In this document: piece after piece, positions 1,713 to 29,700 of the stretch | How the letters are laid out: every line of letters starts with the position of its first letter | Numbering within the stretch: the first letter of the stretch is position 1 | From: Candidatus Lokiarchaeum ossiferum | GTDB lineage: Archaea; Asgardarchaeota; Lokiarchaeia; Sigyniarchaeales; Promethearchaeaceae | Reading direction: 5' to 3' | NCBI GenBank assembly: GCA_025839675.1 | Contig: CP104013.1 | Coordinates: forward strand, 3,540,001 to 3,572,000 | Length of the DNA stretch: 32,000 nt | The notes under the pieces: model-generated | What the model was told of the DNA's origin: nothing | Database searches by the model: none | The model's input: the letters and a program-made list of their open reading frames with translations, nothing else | Made by a program: the position numbers and the translations under genes

Positions 1713-1823
1713 ATGAATCGCACAAAATCGATAAATTCTCATTCTCACACTTTATCGTTACGTGGATTTTCTCTTCTTGGTTTATTACACTTGCAATTGT
1801 TAGTTCTTCTTCTCTTATTATAG
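1713..1823 (+). CDS. Leu-rich leader peptide (36 aa) upstream of leuA
   Basis: ATG 1713 to TAG 1821-1823 encodes MNRTKSINSHSHTLSLRGFSLLGLLHLQLLVLLLLL. It has 14 Leu in total, and 12 of the last 16 codons are Leu, running right up to the stop. A partial SD (AAGGA, 1701-1705) lies 7 nt upstream. It is not in the ORF track because it is under 60 aa. Confidence 0.6.
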   Translation: MNRTKSINSHSHTLSLRGFSLLGLLHLQLLVLLLLL

Positions 1824-1824
1824 T

Positions 1825-1900
1825 GGCCTCTTAGATTCTTGGCTATTATAATCCATCTTTCTTTTGAATCTAAGGGGCCGCTGTTGAAACATTAGAATTC
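1825..1900 (+). promoter_or_regulatory. alternative RNA pairings between the Leu leader and the leuA SD
   Basis: S1 (1825-1838, GGCCTCTTAGATTC) pairs with S2 (1866-1879, GAATCTAAGGGGCC) over 14 bp with one G.U. S1 starts 2 nt after the leader stop. S2 (1866-1873) can instead pair with S3 (1892-1900, TTAGAATTC) over 8 bp with one bulged A, ending 2 nt before the leuA SD AAGGAG (1903-1908). Confidence 0.5.
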
Positions 1901-1922
1901 AAAAGGAGATTTTAGACAAATT

Positions 1923-3545
1923 ATGACCCAAAATAAAAATATTTCAGTTTCCCAAATGATGGAAAAGATGCAAAATCAAATGAATTTGCCTCCCCACGCC
2001 TACTACTTTGACACTACTCTACGAGATGGTGAGCAAACCCATGGAATTGTATTTAATATGAATGAAAAACTCGAAATTGCCCGGAGTCTAGATAATTTGG
2101 GCATCGATGTGATTGAAGCAGGATTTCCCGTCGTCTCTGATGGCGACTTTCAAGCCTGCAAAGAAATTGTGAAACTTGGCTTAAAGGCAGAAATTGCTGG
2201 ATTGGCTCGATTAAATCAACAAGACATTGATTGCGCTGTAGATGCCGATCTGGATGCCATCCACGTATTTATCGCTACGTCAGATCTGCATTTGAAGAAT
2301 AAATTAAAAATGACTCAAGATCAAGTCCTATCGAAAATTGAAAGCTATGTTTCCAAGGCGAAAGAAAATTTTACCAATGTAGTCTTCTCGGCCGAAGATG
2401 CTACTCGAACAAACTTGGATTTTCTGATTAAATGCAATGAACTCGCTGTAAATTCTGGGGCAACTCGAATCAATATTCCAGATACAGTTGGGACTATTAC
2501 CCCGATGGCGTATGGATACATAATAAAAGAACATTACAATAAGTTGCCTAAAAATATCCGAATTTCGGCACATTGCCATAATGATTTTGGTTTAGGTGTT
2601 GCTAATACCATTGCAGCTTTTGAAAATGGGGCTTCCGAAGCACAAACAACAATCTTAGGTTTAGGTGAACGAGCAGGAAATGCGGCATTTGAAGAAACTG
2701 CCATGTCTTTGTATGCTCTCTATGGATTGAAATCCAATATTATCTATAACAAAATTTATCCCACTGCAAAACTAGTAGAAAGATATTGCGGTGGAAAAAT
2801 TTCGATTGGAAGACTGACTCCTTTGATTGGGAAAAACGCCTTTTCCCATGAGTCTGGTATTCATGCTCATGCAATGATTCAAAATGCTCGAACCTATGAA
2901 CCAATTTCTCCTTCATTATTAGGAATTCCGCGCTCTGATTCCAAATCAGCAATAGTTGCCCAATCTATAAAACTCGGAAAACACACAGGTAATCATGCCT
3001 TGAGGGCTAAAATTAATGAAATAGGTATTATTCCTACGGATGAGCAGTTTTCAACGATTCGGAATAACATTAAAAGGATTGGCGACAAAGGACATGAAAT
3101 TCGAGAGGAAGATTTTCTCGCTATCGTTAAAGATGTGATGGGGGAGATTCCAGAACAAGAAAAATTCGTAATATTAGAAGAATTGACAGTATTGACCGGA
3201 TCAGTTACCCCGACTGCAACGGTTCGGTTGAAAATTCGAAACAATGGAGATTTCATTGAAAGAATTGCCTCCTCCATTGGTAATGGTCCTGTGGATGCCA
3301 GCATCAATGCTATTGTAAAATGTTTTTCCAAAATGTCGAAAATTCTATTGCTCTCATTTGATATTGAAGCCATCACCGGAGGTACTGATGCTTTAGGGCA
3401 TGTATCCATAGAAGTGGAAGATATTGAAACCAATAATATCGTCTCTTCCAATGCGACCCACGAGGATGTGGTCATGAGTGCCGTATTAGCCATGATTAAA
3501 GCCTTGAACAAACTTGTACGGGAAAAAAATTCCTCCCAAGCATAA
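1923..3545 (+). CDS. leuA: 2-isopropylmalate synthase
   Basis: It is 540 aa with the aldolase motifs FDTTLRDGEQ, HCHNDFGLGVANT and GLGERAGNA, plus a C-terminal regulatory (LeuA-dimer type) domain. The SD AAGGAG is at 1903-1908. The leuA-versus-cimA assignment is supported by the Leu-rich leader. Confidence 0.8.
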   Translation: MTQNKNISVSQMMEKMQNQMNLPPHAYYFDTTLRDGEQTHGIVFNMNEKLEIARSLDNLGIDVIEAGFPVVSDGDFQACKEIVKLGLKAEIAGLARLNQQDIDCAVDADLDAIHVFIATSDLHLKNKLKMTQDQVLSKIESYVSKAKENFTNVVFSAEDATRTNLDFLIKCNELAVNSGATRINIPDTVGTITPMAYGYIIKEHYNKLPKNIRISAHCHNDFGLGVANTIAAFENGASEAQTTILGLGERAGNAAFEETAMSLYALYGLKSNIIYNKIYPTAKLVERYCGGKISIGRLTPLIGKNAFSHESGIHAHAMIQNARTYEPISPSLLGIPRSDSKSAIVAQSIKLGKHTGNHALRAKINEIGIIPTDEQFSTIRNNIKRIGDKGHEIREEDFLAIVKDVMGEIPEQEKFVILEELTVLTGSVTPTATVRLKIRNNGDFIERIASSIGNGPVDASINAIVKCFSKMSKILLLSFDIEAITGGTDALGHVSIEVEDIETNNIVSSNATHEDVVMSAVLAMIKALNKLVREKNSSQA

Positions 3546-3578
3546 TCCTCCCCATTAAATTTATATTGATAGTTATTC

Positions 3579-3585
3579 TTTTTTT
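3579..3585 (+). terminator. T7 tract downstream of leuA
   Basis: The sequence agttattc-ttttttt-cat lies 34 nt after the leuA stop and before the SD of the next leader ORF. Confidence 0.35.
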
Positions 3586-3613
3586 CATATTCTCTTTAGG
3601 AGAAACTCAAATA

Positions 3614-3727
3614 ATGTCACAACTAACCTGTCCTCAAAATACCTCCATTGTTAATCTTTCTAAGGTAGGGTTAGGTTTACGCATTATTACCATTATTTCT
3701 TTGATTATTCTTATTATTATCTGCTAA
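3614..3727 (+). CDS. Ile-rich leader peptide (37 aa) upstream of cimA
   Basis: ATG 3614 to TAA 3725-3727 encodes MSQLTCPQNTSIVNLSKVGLGLRIITIISLIILIIIC. It has 10 Ile in total, and 9 of the last 14 codons are Ile. The SD AGGAG (3598-3602) lies 11 nt upstream. It is not in the ORF track. Confidence 0.6.
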   Translation: MSQLTCPQNTSIVNLSKVGLGLRIITIISLIILIIIC

Positions 3728-3735
3728 GATATTAA

Positions 3736-3833
3736 ACTCTTTGCCGATAATAATCTCGTTTTTACGTTTAAATTTTTGGTGAAGGGTGCAGATTTAATTA
3801 GGATATTTTGGAAATCTTGGAAATCACCAAAAA
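3736..3833 (+). promoter_or_regulatory. alternative RNA pairings between the Ile leader and the cimA start
   Basis: S1 (3736-3745) pairs with S2a (3778-3787) over 10 bp including 3 G.U. S2b (3773-3782, TTTTTGGTGA) pairs with S3 (3824-3833, TCACCAAAAA) over 10 bp perfectly. The two S2 arms overlap, so the structures exclude each other. T5 tracts lie at 3759-3763 and 3773-3777. A tandem direct repeat TTGGAAATC x2 lies at 3808-3825. Confidence 0.45.
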
Positions 3834-3849
3834 CTCACAGGAAATCAAA

Positions 3850-5559
3850 ATGAATACTACACTTGTTCAACTTTACGATACTACTTTACGCGATGGCTTA
3901 CAAATGGCCGGAATAGCGCTATCACAGCGAGACAAATACTTACTAGTTCAGATGCTACACAACCAGTTGAATATTAATCATATTGAGATTTACCCGTTTT
4001 CCAACCCGAAAGATCGTGAATTGATTTCCATGGTAAAACAAAACACACCTGAACTTTTGGATGCGTTGGTGGCTTTTGGGTCTACCAGAAATGTGAAAAA
4101 TATCCCTCAAAATGATCCTAATCTACTATCTCTTTCCACTTGTGGGCTGAAAAAAGCCACAATATTTGGGAAATCTTGGATTTTACATTTAGAAGCTATT
4201 CACGCTTCACCAGAGGAAAATTTGGCAATGATTGCTGATTCCGTAACATATCTCAAAGAAGCTGGGTTAACAGTTATCTATGATGCGGAACACTTCTTCG
4301 ATGGATACAACGAAAATCCAAAATATGCTTTAAAAACTTTGTTAGCTGCCGAAAATGCTGGAGCAGATTATCTGATCCTATGTGATACCAATGGAGGATG
4401 CCTTCCCTCTGATATAAAACAAATTGGACAAGAAATATTGAAACATACCAATGTTCCTTTAGGAATCCATACTCACAACGATTCTGGTTTAGCCGTTGCT
4501 AATTCCATAGTCTTTACACAACTGTGTTTAGATGCGGGGCGACGTTGTCAAGTTCAAGGAACCTTAAATGGGATTGGAGAACGATGTGGCAATGCGAACC
4601 TTATCACCTTAATCCCAATTTTGAATCTTAAATTAAATCAAAAAATCATCCAGAAGGATAATTTTGCGAATTTAACTTCCTTAGCAAATGTAACGCTTGA
4701 AATTATGAACTTAAATCCCTCTGCAAATTCTCCTTTTGTGGGATCCAATGCTTTTTCCCATAAAGGTGGAATGCATATAGCCGCTGTTCGGAAAAATAAT
4801 TCTCTCTACGAACATATTAATCCAAAATGTTTAGGAAACAAACGCAAATATTTAATAAGTGAAATGGCCGGACGAAGTGCTCTTTTACAAAAAATGTCTC
4901 AATTCGAGATTCCTGTTGATAAGGATAATCCTCTCCTTGCTGAAATCTTGAAAAAAATTAAGACAAAGGAGTCGAAGGGATATACATACGAAGGTGCGGA
5001 TGCTTCCCTCGAGATTTTGATCCGGAGTTTAATCGCAGATTCAAATCGGGATATTAATTTTTATCGCCAAAAGTTCTTTGAAGTGGATTATTTTAGGGTT
5101 GTTATAGATGCCCGCAATCTATTTAACAAGAATGCTATTTCAGTTTTTACTGATGCAAATGTGAAAACTTCTTTCTTTCAAGGGGATGTTAAACGCGATT
5201 TTCATACAGCGGATTCTGGAAATGGGCCGGTAAGTGCTTTAGATAATGCGCTCCGAAAAGCCTTGATAAATTTCTATCCTGCGTTAAACGAAATCGAGTT
5301 ATCTGATTTCAAAGTACGCATCAGCAATGTCTATGATAGTGATCATGGTACTGCCTCCCGTGTTCGAGTTTTAGTAGAAACTAAAGATCTAGATGGGCAG
5401 ATATGGAATACAGTTGGAGTGCATTCAAACATTATATTGGCCTCATTTATTGCCTTAGTCGATTCATTTATTTATAAATTACTTAAGAATAATGTCAATC
5501 CAGTGGAACATCAGAGTTCAGTGGAAGTACCTGAGGTGAAATCAGCGATAAAAATGTAG
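3850..5559 (+). CDS. cimA: LeuA-related long-form synthase, probably (R)-citramalate synthase
   Basis: From ATG 3850 it reads MNTTLVQLYDTTLRDGLQ, with HTHNDSGLAVANS, NGIGERCGNANL and a C-terminal regulatory domain. It resembles the LeuA-related branch that contains Geobacter-type CimA (IE..P.SNPKD motif). The track ORF starts at an upstream in-frame TTG at 3808. The Ile-rich leader supports an isoleucine-pathway role. Confidence 0.62.
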   Translation: MNTTLVQLYDTTLRDGLQMAGIALSQRDKYLLVQMLHNQLNINHIEIYPFSNPKDRELISMVKQNTPELLDALVAFGSTRNVKNIPQNDPNLLSLSTCGLKKATIFGKSWILHLEAIHASPEENLAMIADSVTYLKEAGLTVIYDAEHFFDGYNENPKYALKTLLAAENAGADYLILCDTNGGCLPSDIKQIGQEILKHTNVPLGIHTHNDSGLAVANSIVFTQLCLDAGRRCQVQGTLNGIGERCGNANLITLIPILNLKLNQKIIQKDNFANLTSLANVTLEIMNLNPSANSPFVGSNAFSHKGGMHIAAVRKNNSLYEHINPKCLGNKRKYLISEMAGRSALLQKMSQFEIPVDKDNPLLAEILKKIKTKESKGYTYEGADASLEILIRSLIADSNRDINFYRQKFFEVDYFRVVIDARNLFNKNAISVFTDANVKTSFFQGDVKRDFHTADSGNGPVSALDNALRKALINFYPALNEIELSDFKVRISNVYDSDHGTASRVRVLVETKDLDGQIWNTVGVHSNIILASFIALVDSFIYKLLKNNVNPVEHQSSVEVPEVKSAIKM

Positions 5560-5622
5560 GAATTGATCAAAACTTTCTGGTTTCAATAGCAAAGTACCAG
5601 AGATAAAAATGACATTTAAAGA

Positions 5623-5628
5623 TTTTTT
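5623..5628 (+). terminator. T6 tract downstream of cimA
   Basis: The sequence ga-tttttt-aacg lies about 65 nt after the cimA stop. Confidence 0.3.
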
Positions 5629-5781
5629 AACGAAATTCATTCTAATTGCTCAATATTAGAATAAAATATTTTTAGTGAATTTTGAGATTTAATACTTGTA
5701 ATATAGTATTTCAATTTTGATAATTGGGGCATTTTCAAAAAGTTTAATTACTTTTCTTACTTTTAGTAAAACAATATCTTT

Positions 5782-5934
5782 GGAGCCAATCTTAATGTCT
5801 AAAATATTTCACGCTCGAAAAATTCCATTCTTTCTTTTAAAAATTCGCGTGATTTTAGTCATTTTACTTGTACTTATTATTATTTGCTAGATTGGCTCCT
5901 TATCGATTATACTTTATTAGTTGGTAAGGAGTTG
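5782..5934 (+). promoter_or_regulatory. mutually exclusive pairings: a leader-bracketing stem versus an ilvB SD-sequestering hairpin
   Basis: A (5782-5792, GGAGCCAATCT) pairs with B (5889-5899, AGATTGGCTCC) over 11 bp perfectly, enclosing the whole leader ORF. B' (5893-5909) pairs with C (5918-5934) over 17 bp (11 Watson-Crick, 6 G.U) with an 8-nt loop. C contains the ilvB SD AAGGAG (5926-5931). B and B' overlap. Confidence 0.55.
5795..5890 (+). CDS. Ile/Leu/Val-rich leader peptide (31 aa) upstream of ilvB
   Basis: ATG 5795 to TAG 5888-5890 encodes MSKIFHARKIPFFLLKIRVILVILLVLIIIC. Twelve of the last 13 codons are I, L or V. The SD GGAG (5782-5785) lies 9 nt upstream. Its last ~20 nt (CTTATTATTATTTGCTAG) nearly match the end of the Ile leader (CTTATTATTATCTGCTAA). 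Confidence 0.65.
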   Translation: MSKIFHARKIPFFLLKIRVILVILLVLIIIC

Positions 5935-5938
5935 AACA

Positions 5939-7804
5939 ATTATCAAAGGCACGAAAATTATAAAGAAAATCCTAAAAGAAACAGGAAACACCACCCTCTT
6001 TGGGTATCCTGGAGGTGCAATTATGCCCTTCTATGACGAAATCTATGAAGATCCGGATATTCGAAGTATTTTGATGCGACATGAGCAAGCTGCAGGCCAT
6101 GCGGCTGAAGGATTTGCAGTCGCTTCTGGGAAATTGGGAGTTGTTATGACCACTAGCGGACCTGGAGCGACCAACGTAATCACTGCTCTCGCCAATGCCT
6201 ATTACGATAGCTCTCCTCTCTTGGCATTTTCAGGGCAAGTTCCAACTCATTTAATTGGAAATGATGCTTTTCAAGAAGCCGATTTAATAGGTTCTACTAT
6301 GGCTATCACAAAACACAATTATCTAATCAAGAATGTTAATGATGTGGGTCGAATTTTTAAAGAAGCAATTCATATCGCTACAACGGGAAGACCTGGTCCA
6401 GTTTTTATTGATTTACCTAAGGATGTACAAAAGGCCGAAAGTACGGCAAAATTACCTATTCCTATGGATATCTCCTTAGTTGGTTATAATCCAATCACAT
6501 TCACCAATGCAGTAAAACGGCAAGTAAAAACGGCTTTGCAAATAATCTCTGAAGCCCAATATCCTGTAATCATTGCTGGAGGTGGAACTTTACTAGCCAA
6601 TGCCTCCGATGCTCTTCAACAGTTCGTCGACACTCTTAGGATCCCAGTGGTCTATACATTAAAAGGTAAAGGAGTTTTGAGTGATGATCATCCCTATGTG
6701 CTTGGATTGATTGGAATGCATGGTCGGAAACGTGCCAATTTTGCTGTTTCTGAAGCGGATGTTGTGATTGCTCTTGGTTGTCGGTTTAGTGATCGCATTA
6801 CAGGTGATTTACAGAAATTTCCTGGCCAGTCCAATGCAAAAATAATTCATGTAGATATCGATGCTGCAGAAATTGGAAAAAATGTATCGGTCGATCTCCC
6901 AATCGTTGCCGATGCAAGATGTGCTTTGGATGAATTTAATCATCAAATTCAAAAATCTTTGGTAAGAAATGAGTCTTATCCCATGAAATCATGGTGGTAT
7001 AAATTCATAGATGGATTAAAAGCCTCTTCTGGTATCCCCAATGTAACTACTCCTGGAAAAACTGGTCTAATCTTACCCGAAAAAGTGATGTATGAAATTA
7101 ATCAAATATTGGAACCAGATGATATTGTTGTGAGTGAAGTAGGACAAAATCAAATGTACTGTGGTCATTATTTGAATATTCGAAAGCCTCGGACATGGAT
7201 CACTTCAGGAGGCCTTGGTACTATGGGTTTTGGTTTTCCAGCCTCTATTGGAGCGAAGGTGGCAAAACCAGATTCTGAAGTCTGGTTGATAGCGGGTGAT
7301 GGATCCTTTCAAATGAATATGGCTGAATTAGCAACCCTCAAGCAACATAACATCAAAGTCAATATCGTGATCTTGAATAACCAATATCTTGGGATGGTGA
7401 GACAATGGCAAGAATTATTCCATGAAAAACGATATGCTGGAACATGTCTGCAATGCGATAATGGGGAGTATTGGCCTGATTTTGTGAAATTAGCGGAGGC
7501 ATATGGATTCAAAGGTCTACGAGTAACTGATCCCGCCGAAGTACGCATGGCTCTTGAAATATGTCGTTCATCAAAGGAATCCTTTATCGTTGAATTAATG
7601 ATAGAACCAGAATCCAATATTCTACCAATGTTACCTCCTGGGGGGGCACTCAATACATTCTTCAGCCGAAAAAGGGAAAAACGATCAATCTATGATTGGT
7701 ATCGACGACTTCCTCGAATTGAAAGCGAAGTAGTTGGCTATAAAGTACAAAACACCAATGAAGATGCATTTTCGGTGTATTATGAACAGGAGATGTCACG
7801 ATAA
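5939..7804 (+). CDS. ilvB: acetolactate synthase (acetohydroxyacid synthase) large subunit
   Basis: It is a ThDP enzyme with the motifs GYPGGA, GPGATN and GLGTMGFGFPASIGAK. The track ORF starts at ATG 6023, but the conserved N-terminus (IIKGTKIIKKILKETGNTTLFGYPGGAIMPFYD) is encoded in frame upstream with no AUG/GUG/UUG. ATT 5939 lies 7 nt after AAGGAG, and an in-frame TGA at 5933 sets the upstream limit. Confidence 0.85.
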   Translation: MIKGTKIIKKILKETGNTTLFGYPGGAIMPFYDEIYEDPDIRSILMRHEQAAGHAAEGFAVASGKLGVVMTTSGPGATNVITALANAYYDSSPLLAFSGQVPTHLIGNDAFQEADLIGSTMAITKHNYLIKNVNDVGRIFKEAIHIATTGRPGPVFIDLPKDVQKAESTAKLPIPMDISLVGYNPITFTNAVKRQVKTALQIISEAQYPVIIAGGGTLLANASDALQQFVDTLRIPVVYTLKGKGVLSDDHPYVLGLIGMHGRKRANFAVSEADVVIALGCRFSDRITGDLQKFPGQSNAKIIHVDIDAAEIGKNVSVDLPIVADARCALDEFNHQIQKSLVRNESYPMKSWWYKFIDGLKASSGIPNVTTPGKTGLILPEKVMYEINQILEPDDIVVSEVGQNQMYCGHYLNIRKPRTWITSGGLGTMGFGFPASIGAKVAKPDSEVWLIAGDGSFQMNMAELATLKQHNIKVNIVILNNQYLGMVRQWQELFHEKRYAGTCLQCDNGEYWPDFVKLAEAYGFKGLRVTDPAEVRMALEICRSSKESFIVELMIEPESNILPMLPPGGALNTFFSRKREKRSIYDWYRRLPRIESEVVGYKVQNTNEDAFSVYYEQEMSR

Positions 7805-26730: not shown

Positions 26731-29700
26731 ATGAAATTTAAAAATGGGTTTATGAAAACTGCATCTATTTTTGCAATTCTGTTCGTTTCTTTACCAGCAT
26801 TCCAATTTTTCCTTCCATCTGCTAGTGCAGCGGGTGAATTTGATGATGCTTATGAAGAAAATGATGGTATTGCAGAAGCATGGGGATTTTCATATAATGA
26901 GGGATATATTTCCGGGTTGAATCAATCAGATGATGATTGGTATTATTATGATGTTAATCCACATGATAAAATCACCGTAAATATATATTATACTGAATCT
27001 GAAGCTATTATGAATGTATCTTTGTACAATAGTAGCGAAATTCTGTTGGCCACTGAAGTTGATATTGCATATGGCCACAAACGCGTTGAATTTACTAATA
27101 CACATGATCAAAATGAATTTGTGTATTTGAGAGTTTTTGGTAATAATAGTATGAAACTTTATGATTTACAAGCTAGTTTTGACTATGTTTTTGATCTAGA
27201 GCCTAATAACATCCTAGAAGATGCCTCAAAACTCCATTTCCCTGGCTTTTTCTCAGGTGGAATCCAAGAAAATGATGATTGGTTTGAAATTTGGGTAGAG
27301 GCAAATAAATCTCTTCACGTTTTCTTGAGAGACTGGTCTTATTCAAATAAAATTAATATCACTCTGTTTGATGGTACACATTCAATTATTGCAATTCCCT
27401 ATGAATCTTCTAGTGAAAATAATAAGCTCCAGTGGATAAATCCATTTAACTATGATACATCTGTATACTTACTTGTTAATGGTACAAATGAAAGTACTAA
27501 TTATGAATTGGACTTGGACTTAATCATTGATATCGAACCTAATAACATCCCATCAGAAGCAGTGGAATTACCCCATCCTGGGAATTATGATAATGGGATG
27601 GTTCAAGAAGGATATGATTATTACAAAATTTTCTTAGAAAATGGTGATTTTGTCAAATTTTATTTGAACAATCCAAATTATGGTTCTTATAATATCAATA
27701 TGACCTTATTGAATAGTTCCTTAGCACACGTATCTACTGGGTTTGATGAGTATTCTGATGGAAATGTATATCTTAACTATACTCATTATGGAGATGGTCA
27801 GTGGTACTATATTCTTATTGATGGAGATAATATGGGCGGATCCTATTCCCTCGAATTTTACTATTTAATTGATATTGAACCAAATAATGATTTTGGTAGT
27901 GCTAGTTTGATTTATTCTACTGGATTTTATGATCACAATTGGTTAGGGGAAGAAGATTGGTTCTGCTTCAACGTATCTTCAGGAGAAGAGATTGAAGTTC
28001 GTCTAAATGATTTGGGAAGTTCAGAACCGATGAGCTTTGAAATTTACAACTCAACTAATGATCTCTATATGACAAGTTGGGATAAAGATGGTGAGCAATA
28101 TGTTTCTTTAACAAACAATGATATTGGCCAGTTCTATTACATTCGGGTATATAGCTCGGGCATGTATATGGCGTATGGATATCAGTTGGAAATTCGATAC
28201 CCATTTCATGAGGCTGATGATGATTGGTTAGAAGAAAATGATGATCTTTCTTCAGCAACTTGGATCGGCCCATCTCATTATGATTTAATTCAAAAAGATG
28301 CTGATTGGTTCAATACAACAATACCAGGTGGTGATATGTTGGAAGTATCACTGAGTTTTAATGGGGCGAGTAATGATATTGATCTCTTCTTGTACGATCA
28401 ATATAACGCACTCCTAAACAGTTCTACTGGAATTGGAGATTGGGAACATGTGTCCTATTTTGCAGAATATACTATGAACGTAAGTTTCTTAGTCTCTGGA
28501 AATGGAAATGGAGAACCTTATTGTATGGATGTCAATTCGTATTACGTTGGGACAGGTCCAAGTGATGATTGGTTAGAAGAAAACGATGATCCTTATTCTG
28601 CCTCATGGATCGGACCATCCCACTATGATTTGATACAAATGGATAACGATTGGTTCAACACTACAATACCTGGAGGAGATATGTTAGAAATTTCCTTAAA
28701 TTTCAACGGATCGATAAATGATATGGATCTATATCTGTATGATCAATATGGGACTCTTCTAAACATGTCCACTGGAGCCGAAGACTGGGAAAAGGTGACC
28801 TACTATGCTGAAAACTCTCTGAATGTAAGTTTCCTTGTCGTGGGAGATAATAATGGAGAACCTTACAGTATGGATGTTTATTCTTACTATATTCCAATGG
28901 GATCCTCTGATGATACACTTGAAGAGAACGATAACCAAGAACAAGCTGCTTGGATCACTAGTGGATATTACTCCGATCTTTATCAAGGAGATGAAGATTG
29001 GTATAACATATCTGTTTCTCTTGGCAGTGTATTAGAGGTAGAATTGTGGTTTAATGGGTCTTCTAATGATGTTGATTTCGAATTGTTCAATTCTTTCGGA
29101 GATACTGTCGGAGGTTCGTACTCTGCTTCAGATTATGAGTCATTTATCTTTCGTAATATGCAAGAATCGCAAATCATTTCAATCAAAGTTTATGGTTATA
29201 ACAATTTCGAGCCATACACTATGAATATTGACATCTATCCAGATTCGGATGATTGGATGGAAGACAACGATTTTAATAATCAAGCTCACTTCCTTTATTT
29301 GCCATTTGAAGGAGAGAATTTACGTAACTTCGATGATGATTGGTATGAATTTCATTTAGAAACCAATGATGTTGCAGATATTTATTTTGATCTAATTGAT
29401 GCATCTTATCCACTTCAGGTTGAGATCTGGACACAGAGTTGGGAATTGATCTTCAATGTAACTGTTACTGGACCTCATACAATTTCTGTTGAAGCTAATT
29501 ACAATCCATCCGATTACTTCATGAGAGTATCCGGATATAATCTGGGAGAAATTTATAATTTAGAAATTTTTCTGAATGGACTAAGTGTAAACAGTGATGA
29601 TTGGTTTGAACCAAATGACTATCCAGTTGAATCTACAGATCTTCTGTTACCTTTCGAAGATTGGGGTTTAAGAAGCTTCAACGAAGATTGGTACGATATC

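Follow-up and report, generated by a model that had tools for sequence, protein, structure and literature searches.

The cluster of branched-chain amino acid (BCAA) genes of Candidatus Lokiarchaeum ossiferum raises the question of whether ribosome-mediated attenuation, in which translation of a leader peptide controls the gene behind it, can operate in an archaeon. Leader-peptide attenuation is a textbook bacterial mechanism. We analysed 32,000 nucleotides (nt) of contig CP104013.1 (positions 3,540,001 to 3,572,000), called the window below, whose coordinates count from its first letter and refer to the + strand unless stated otherwise. NCBIfam profiles gave the gene order leuA-cimA-ilvBN-ilvC-ilvD-leuCD-leuB, followed by clpB. 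Three short open reading frames (sORFs) precede the first three genes. The Leu leader (1713-1823; 36 amino acids (aa), ending ...LLGLLHLQLLVLLLLL before its stop codon) stands before leuA (2-isopropylmalate synthase, 1923-3545; NF002085, 557 bits against a cutoff of 517). The Ile leader (3614-3727; 37 aa, ending ...RIITIISLIILIIIC) stands before cimA (3850-5559; TIGR00977, 567 bits against a cutoff of 450), whose product is 100% identical to an NCBI protein named (R)-citramalate synthase. The Ile/Leu/Val (ILV) leader (5795-5890; 31 aa, ending ...RVILVILLVLIIIC, codon run 5849-5884) stands before ilvB (5939-7804; TIGR00118, 720 bits).

A preliminary description of this DNA, made from the letters alone, had taken the three sORFs for amino-acid attenuation leaders, and the comparisons reported here support that interpretation. 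We put at about 70% the probability that they are amino-acid-sensing leader peptides, each starting its own transcript, with a mainly translational output. The lengths, positions and tails of the sORFs were as described, the gene map bore out their placement in the only long gaps of the cluster, and each has its own Shine-Dalgarno (SD) sequence, a GGAG- or AGGA-type motif 7-11 nt before the start codon. They had also been called unannotated, which holds for the ILV sORF, absent from the protein collection; the Leu and Ile sORFs are deposited in GenBank as the hypothetical proteins NEF87_002999 (UYP46714.1) and NEF87_003001 (UYP46716.1). The 37-aa Ile-leader protein is also present in a second genome (XEO78182.1).

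Could such runs arise by chance in AT-rich DNA? We scored the ATG-initiated sORFs of 20-80 aa in the six frames of the window by the number of Ile, Leu and Val among their last 12 residues. The Leu, Ile and ILV leaders, with counts of 10, 9 and 11, were the top three of 206, and the next-highest count was 8, in an sORF antisense within a large gene. Of 1882 sORFs in 212 kb from Lokiarchaeial loci, the 15 with the best scores included 13 leaders lying directly before leuA, cimA or ilvB. As a calibration point for chance Ile runs we used an antisense sORF (26926-27105, - strand) within a 1559-aa gene, which ends ...INIIIIPIII. The matches listed of a scan of genome contigs with a cimA alignment were all bacterial, and none of 76 such cimA loci had a run-bearing sORF within 450 nt, a control that is imperfect since those genomes are more GC-rich. 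A metagenome scan with a Loki-specific cimA sub-alignment returned three loci, none of them informative. In the Lokiarchaeial loci examined, which contain no his, trp or thr operons, there was no convincing leader enriched in any other amino acid. The observation is real and lies far beyond chance.

The relatives' loci (L0xx) were fetched by exact-protein look-ups of CimA and LeuA relatives, and their upstream regions were scanned. Absence or mismatch of the sORFs in related genomes had been set beforehand as the outcome that would count against the attenuation reading; what we found instead was that they recur and are amino-acid-matched. In L083, L090, L092 and L095, whose LeuA is 85-88% identical to that of the window, the leuA leaders are homologous to the window's (...SLRGFSLLGLLHLQxLxLLLLL). 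Leu-run leaders also precede the stand-alone leuA of L097 (LeuA 71%; ...KRLLGSLILLNSLLLLLLL) and the leuA-leuCD operon of L098-L107 (LeuA 68%; MLLQKTTRIESRNSFKQFYPFLLLLNLLLLLL), and the terminal Leu run is the sole part common to these three groups, the N-terminal peptides being unrelated. The Ile leader ...GLGLxIIxxxSIIILIIIC is common to the window, L082/L095, L083, L090 and L092 (CimA 77-80%) and L084 (62%). The stand-alone cimA of L085/L086 (CimA 56%) follows an unrelated Ile-run peptide, ...SEMSHIQESIISIIPIIIQ, and in L093 and L094 (about 55% CimA) there is no gap upstream of cimA. The ilvB leader was found in the window and in L084 only, where the homologue ends ...YILLRIILIC.

ATG, SD-like motif, frame and stop position are kept in every leader lineage, and the open frame always yields the matching residue, Leu before leuA and Ile before cimA. 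Each leader is a short same-strand ORF with its own ribosome-binding site (RBS) directly upstream of the biosynthetic gene, and its end-product codon run is kept in orthologous loci despite drift of the remaining peptide. ATT makes up 54 of the 58 codons of the Ile runs, and the Leu runs consist of TTA and CTT; we rejected the sensing of rare codons, as all three are common. The near-identical 3' ends noticed earlier in the Ile and ILV leaders (CTTATTATTATCTGCTAA at 3710-3727 and CTTATTATTATTTGCTAG at 5873-5890) extend to both families, and this common ...ATT ATT ATY TGC TAR end supports the duplication then proposed. All cimA and ilvB leaders of L084 and the Lokiarchaeum group have TGC, a Cys codon, directly before the stop (3722-3727 and 5885-5890 in the window), the stop itself is TAA or TAG, and GA comes next; this invariant UGCUARGA context may be part of an outer helix or a termination context.

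The conserved runs are accompanied by conserved RNA structure. Each leader lineage has a hairpin whose start falls from -3 to +9 nt relative to the final base of the stop codon. Folding energies were compared with dinucleotide shuffles. The leuA hairpin of the window reached -29.4 kcal/mol (z -6.7), those of L083, L090, L092 and L095 ranged from -21.8 to -29.2 kcal/mol (z -4.7 to -5.2), and those of L097 and L098 were at about -22 kcal/mol (z -2.0 and -2.3). For the ilvB hairpin we obtained -21.0 kcal/mol (z -5.6) in the window and -11.8 kcal/mol (z -2.1) in L084, and for the cimA-leader hairpins -11.3 to -23.5 kcal/mol (z -1.6 to -5.6). In the Lokiarchaeum group the 5' arms of these hairpins are CUCYUU-like and the 3' arms AAGRRG-like.

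In the Leu leader the nucleotide sequence itself is conserved, beyond the stop codon as well. In the five close genomes the 20 nt after the Leu run (TTATAGTGGCCTCTTAGATT) and most of the opposite arm are invariant, the loop varying in sequence and length, while only 23% of the third codon positions of leuA are invariant. In L095 the peptide is altered (SLRGFS to SITGIF), yet the pairing with the leader RBS is kept. This pattern points to selection on the RNA as well as on the codon run. A covariation score as high as that of the leuA leader was reached by 1 of 500 shuffles, a marginal result from five sequences and thus underpowered.

What might the RNA do? Scarcity of charged tRNA-Leu or tRNA-Ile (and of tRNA-Val for the ILV leader of the window) would make a ribosome pause on the terminal run, and the paused ribosome would keep pyrimidine-rich RNA, lying in the run or just past the stop codon, from pairing with purine-rich RNA downstream. 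The stalling, its effect on translation and the direction of this effect are what we infer from the arrangement. We modelled it by masking a 29-nt ribosome footprint at successive codons and computing how likely the SD core is to be unpaired; such predictions assume equilibrium, concern A/U-rich RNA and speak to plausibility only. A global measure of accessibility from SD to start codon was too noisy and was replaced by the SD-core probabilities.

At ilvB the putative translational output can be read directly from the sequence. The region contains an anti-SD segment, S2 (GAUUGGCUCCUUAUCGAUUA, 5890-5909), which starts at the last base of the leader stop codon (RNA GAUUGGCUCC...). The SD region of the ILV leader itself, S1 (GGAGCCAATC, RNA GGAGCCAAUC, 5782-5791), is a perfect 10-nt complement of S2 (duplex -16.9 kcal/mol). 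The third segment, S3 (5917-5941), carries the ilvB SD AAGGAG (5926-5931) in the 3' arm of an 18-bp hairpin, followed by the start codon ATT (5939-5941). S2 pairs with either S1 or S3, and the two folds differ by 1.9 kcal/mol. In L084 both sides of both helices have changed and the pairing is kept: S1:S2 reads GGAGCTAATC/GATTAGCTCC (GGAGCUAAUC/GAUUAGCUCC) and S2:S3 reads CUCCCUA/UAGGGAG. The anti-SD would thus hide the ilvB SD beside a weak AUU start, and a ribosome on the last codons would free it; bound to the leader's own SD in the alternative fold, the same element would toggle two ribosome-binding sites. In the window, the ilvB SD core was predicted to be 0.17 unpaired in free RNA and at most 0.16 with a ribosome earlier in the run, rising to 0.47-0.82 with a ribosome on the last 2-3 positions.

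The ilvB gene has no canonical start codon, since an in-frame TGA (5933-5935) leaves only ATT at 5939 or ATC at 5942. These candidate starts lie 7-10 nt after GGAG, and the match to the acetolactate synthase profile begins at position 2 with the conserved N-terminus IKGTKIIKKILKETGNTTLFGYPGG. The same situation is found in L083, L090 and L092, which suggests AUU/AUC initiation of ilvB. In the five close relatives a C-terminal extension of cimA (...QGVEQ(I/L)SKEQKL) reads through the ilvB SD and start codon, whereas the window and the more distant L084 have instead a cimA-ilvB spacer of about 370 nt with a putative promoter and a leader (5560-5938 in the window). This distribution implies that the ILV-leader spacer was lost in the close relatives or gained by recombination.

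In the leuA leader the pairing partners are arranged differently. RNAalifold pairs the ribosome-binding region of the leader (1696-1711, with GAAGGA at 1700-1705) with the invariant in-ORF block GGATTTTCTCTTCTTG (1764-1779) in five genomes, with one compensatory A-U to U-A change; this helix, P1, closes the leader's own RBS. The Leu codon run (1773-1820) comprises 12 Leu among 16 codons. Near its end, UCUUCUCUU (1808-1816) is the 5' strand of a second RNAalifold helix, P2, whose 3' strand is the leuA SD region AAAAGGAGA (1901-1909). Between these two strands, a 19-bp hairpin, P3 (1820-1884; arms 1820-1838 and 1866-1884, 27-nt loop), encloses the stop codon, and none of 956 background windows was as stable as P3 of the window. 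The last Leu codons would thus pair with the leuA SD, stacked on this very stable hairpin; a stall on the run would free the SD and a ribosome at the stop codon would not. The GGAG core of the leuA SD was predicted to be 0.01-0.19 unpaired in free RNA in all five genomes and 0.42-0.76 unpaired in four of them when the A-site was 4-9 codons before the stop; it dropped to 0.00-0.11 with the ribosome at the stop codon. Since the SD opens on the run and closes at the stop, the model tells a stalled from a terminating ribosome. The output at leuA is probably translational too. A mini-ORF, TTG-AAA-CAT-TAG (1884-1895), starts at the last base of P3, 6 nt after an SD-like AAGGGG in the 3' arm of that hairpin; its start, length and stop are kept in five genomes and its inner codons change.

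The cimA leader has the same putative sensor part as the other two. Its SD, AGGAG (3598-3602), is followed by a run of 10 Ile codons (9 ATT, 1 ATC; 3683-3721). An RNAalifold consensus of six genomes gave an in-ORF hairpin (3623-3675) between CTAACCTGTCC (3623-3633) and AAGGTAGGGTTAGG (3662-3675), which L084 keeps with a different sequence, the covariation statistics not being significant. The post-stop hairpin P3 of this leader (3737-3786) is formed by CUCUUUGCC (3737-3745) and GGUGAAGGG (3778-3786); its arms are CUCCUUG/CAAGGAG in L084, where T-A has become C-G on both sides, and CUCUUUGC/GCAAAGGG in the others. The cimA SD region is CAGGAAATC (3838-3846). Three further candidates were set aside at this locus. 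A second upstream ORF (uORF; 3776-3853, TTG start, 25 codons, ATGA overlap with the cimA start), whose start lies in the 3' arm of the Ile-leader hairpin, occurs in the window only. An in-frame TTG (3808) likewise lacks conservation among the relatives, and a hairpin of the last Ile codons with GAUAAUAAU (3746-3754), followed by U5, is found in the window only and partly in L092.

Each leader also appears to start its own transcript. For the Leu leader, a TATA-like element TTTTTAAT (1634-1641), to which we ascribe a promoter role, corresponds to TTTTTAA or TTTATAA in all five close genomes, 74-79 nt before the leader ATG. The Ile-leader unit has TTTATATT (3560-3567), with (T)TAAnTTTAWAT at -51 to -55 from the ATG in six genomes, and the ILV-leader unit has AAAGTTTAATTA (5739-5750), which in the window as in L084 stands 52 or 53 nt before the ATG. 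The oligo-T tracts pointed out earlier are present: a T7 tract ends the leuA unit (3579-3585) and a T6 tract follows cimA (5623-5628). Three separate transcription units would account for a position-conserved TATA-like element per leader and for the T tracts behind leuA and cimA, in support of the three modules proposed at the outset.

Several observations weigh against this reading of the locus. At cimA the SD is predicted to be open and not sequestered (0.61-0.84 unpaired in free RNA); in the masking model it opens no further with a ribosome on the run, and in the window it closes. The pairing of three segments reaching the downstream SD, put forward for all three genes in the preliminary description, therefore stands at ilvB, takes a different geometry at leuA (Leu codons with SD) and fails at cimA. 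The model showed no change for the leuA SD of L083 and little change for the ilvB SD of L084. The ilvB anti-SD is reached only from the last 2-3 codons (Ile, Cys, stop), so that the upstream Val and Leu codons are not obviously sensed. The ilvB leader was not found in the five close relatives (L082, L083, L090, L092 and L095), the helices involving the codon runs are A/U-rich and weak, and the covariation of the cimA leader, in an underpowered set of 5-6 sequences, was indistinguishable from shuffles. In addition, reviews hold that SD use is not prevalent in Lokiarchaea. In the window, 11 of the 24 start codons have GGAG, GAGG or GGTG 5-22 nt before them, typically with an SD-start spacing of 9-11 nt; 10% of random 18-nt windows contain such a motif, and this excess makes SD-based control credible here.

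The open cimA SD, which leaves a translational output unsupported at that gene, bears on an alternative in which the sensor is the same and the output is premature transcription termination, either at oligo-U or through the archaeal termination factor aCPSF1/FttA where the RNA is bare of ribosomes. Stalling at the end of the leader would then let the ribosome shield the RNA, as in tnaC/Rho regulation, and such a mechanism may apply to cimA alone. Two T5 tracts (3759-3763 and 3773-3777) occupy the loop of the post-stop hairpin, at a distance of 32-50 nt from the Ile-leader stop, and the five close genomes retain them; L097 has CCCCCUCCUU...AAGGGGGGG followed by CUUUUU; and the runs abut the stop codon, as in tnaC-type occlusion. 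The T5 tracts are, however, missing from the cimA leaders of L084 and L085, and in the leuA leaders no T tract of at least 5 is conserved (T5 in L083 only, none of at least 4 in L092 and L095), for which reason we rejected T-tract termination as the common mechanism. We found no hairpin-plus-U-run terminator on the + strand between 1500 and 6100, the post-stop hairpins not being followed by U runs, and the ilvB spacer is only 48 nt long and occupied by the SD hairpin. Moreover, stalling uncouples ribosome and RNA polymerase, which by known polarity would increase termination, the wrong direction unless the ribosome shields the RNA. We consider termination an unlikely output, though the most serious of the alternatives.

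Two other explanations dispense with sensing. The sORFs could encode small hydrophobic membrane peptides or trans-acting peptides whose proximity to BCAA genes is unrelated to amino-acid supply: the last 14-20 residues have the hydrophobicity that a membrane helix requires, two of the sORFs carry protein annotations, and some bacterial leader peptides do act in trans (peTrpL). But in all lineages the enrichment is in the residue that matches the downstream enzyme, the peptides of the different lineages have only the run in common, and conservation at the nucleotide level continues beyond the stop, L095 changing the peptide and keeping the RNA pairing. The Ile leader also has a single homologue among 1.84 billion representative proteins, although that homologue has been called as a gene. 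We saw no peptide under selection with a neighbour-independent function, of the small membrane protein or type I toxin-like kind, and regard this explanation as very improbable. We give marginally less credit still to the idea of a conserved regulatory RNA that binds a protein or ligand, or serves as a processing signal, the frames being incidental, or of runs that are chance T-rich low complexity. RNA structure is indeed better conserved than the peptide, the frame decides whether (TTA)n and (ATT)n repeats encode Leu, Ile or Tyr, and the antisense Ile-run sORF mentioned above arose by chance. Against this stand the start codon, SD-like motif, frame and stop position kept in all lineages, the constant match of the open frame to the product, the fact that just 2 of the 15 top-scoring sORFs in the 212 kb lie elsewhere, and the lack of any Rfam family match.

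The leaders were then compared with known systems. Like leuL, ilvL and ivbL and the corynebacterial leuA and ilvBNC leaders, they are short ORFs with their own RBS before a biosynthetic gene, their codon runs are those of the exact end product or products, with separate Leu-specific, Ile-specific and shared-step leaders, and ribosome position is predicted to control alternative RNA pairings. The likeness to leuL, ilvL and ivbL drawn earlier thus holds for product matching; it does not hold for the terminator/antiterminator mechanism, the output here being probably translational. The Loki leaders have neither a GC-rich stem followed by a U run nor an antiterminator/terminator pair, and they match none of the Rfam leader families (Leu, Thr, Trp, His, Leu/Phe), searches with E values up to 10 giving two chance microRNA hits within cimA. 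Their run abuts the stop codon, their arms are anti-SD-like and SD-like with SD access as the predicted output, the leader's own RBS is part of the fold, and the host is an archaeon with TATA-type promoters. Since terminator-like hairpins and Rfam leader matches are lacking, the Loki leaders are not members of the enterobacterial families.

The closest mechanistic precedent is provided by the mycobacterial poly-Cys sORFs, in which a ribosome stalled in the tract blocks an RBS-sequestering structure (Canestrari et al., bioRxiv 10.1101/834739). There too a homopolymeric tract is used and several loci answer to one amino-acid signal; those sORFs are, however, bacterial, leaderless and Cys-specific, whereas the ones described here are archaeal, SD-led and specific for Leu, Ile or ILV, with an ilvB anti-SD common to both SDs. 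ermC and cat/cmlA, which are attenuated at the level of translation, likewise have a leader on which a stalled ribosome opens a hairpin hiding the downstream SD, but the stall is drug-induced and depends on the nascent peptide, while the trigger we infer here is the supply of charged tRNA. In tnaC/Rho attenuation, arrest at the very end of the leader ORF masks the RNA right after the stop; its output is factor-dependent transcription termination, of which an archaeal counterpart through aCPSF1/FttA figures here only in the alternative discussed above. Eukaryotic uORFs (GCN4/ATF4, arginine attenuator peptide) also tune translation of the main ORF by amino-acid supply. They act by scanning and reinitiation or by peptide arrest, with no product-matched runs and no SD sequestration. 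The comparison gains interest from the position of Asgard archaea as the closest relatives of eukaryotes known.

The preliminary description was aware of no established leader-peptide attenuation in archaea, and our full-text literature searches likewise brought up no archaeal case of amino-acid leader-peptide attenuation, their coverage being incomplete so that priority cannot be asserted. With somewhat less confidence than we have in the leaders themselves, we favour the view that these would be the first case of ribosome-mediated, amino-acid-specific attenuation in Archaea, with Leu, Ile and ILV leaders that evolved independently across Lokiarchaeia. If this is true, ribosome sensing of tRNA charging controls genes in Archaea, attenuation can operate without bacterial-type terminators, and the leader mechanism arose or diversified repeatedly within Lokiarchaeia. 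It would also mean that initiation at SDs is important in a lineage described as making little use of them, and it would provide a small cis-element that can be tested in an Asgard archaeon in culture, as well as a naming rule for the recurrent 'hypothetical' genes of 30-40 aa beside biosynthetic operons.

Other genes of the window are archaeal, among them those for a SecY bearing a Sec61 plug and an EMC3/TMCO1-like protein. The DNA of the cluster is also found on a 150-kb Logan contig, where a ubiquitin-like operon (ThiF/UQ_con/JAB) adjoins it. Upstream of the BCAA cluster, in L001 (2186-4893), we observed a gene trio encoding ThiF (E1-like), UQ_con (E2-like) and a JAB deubiquitinase-like protein, that is, a eukaryote-like ubiquitin system typical of Asgard archaea.

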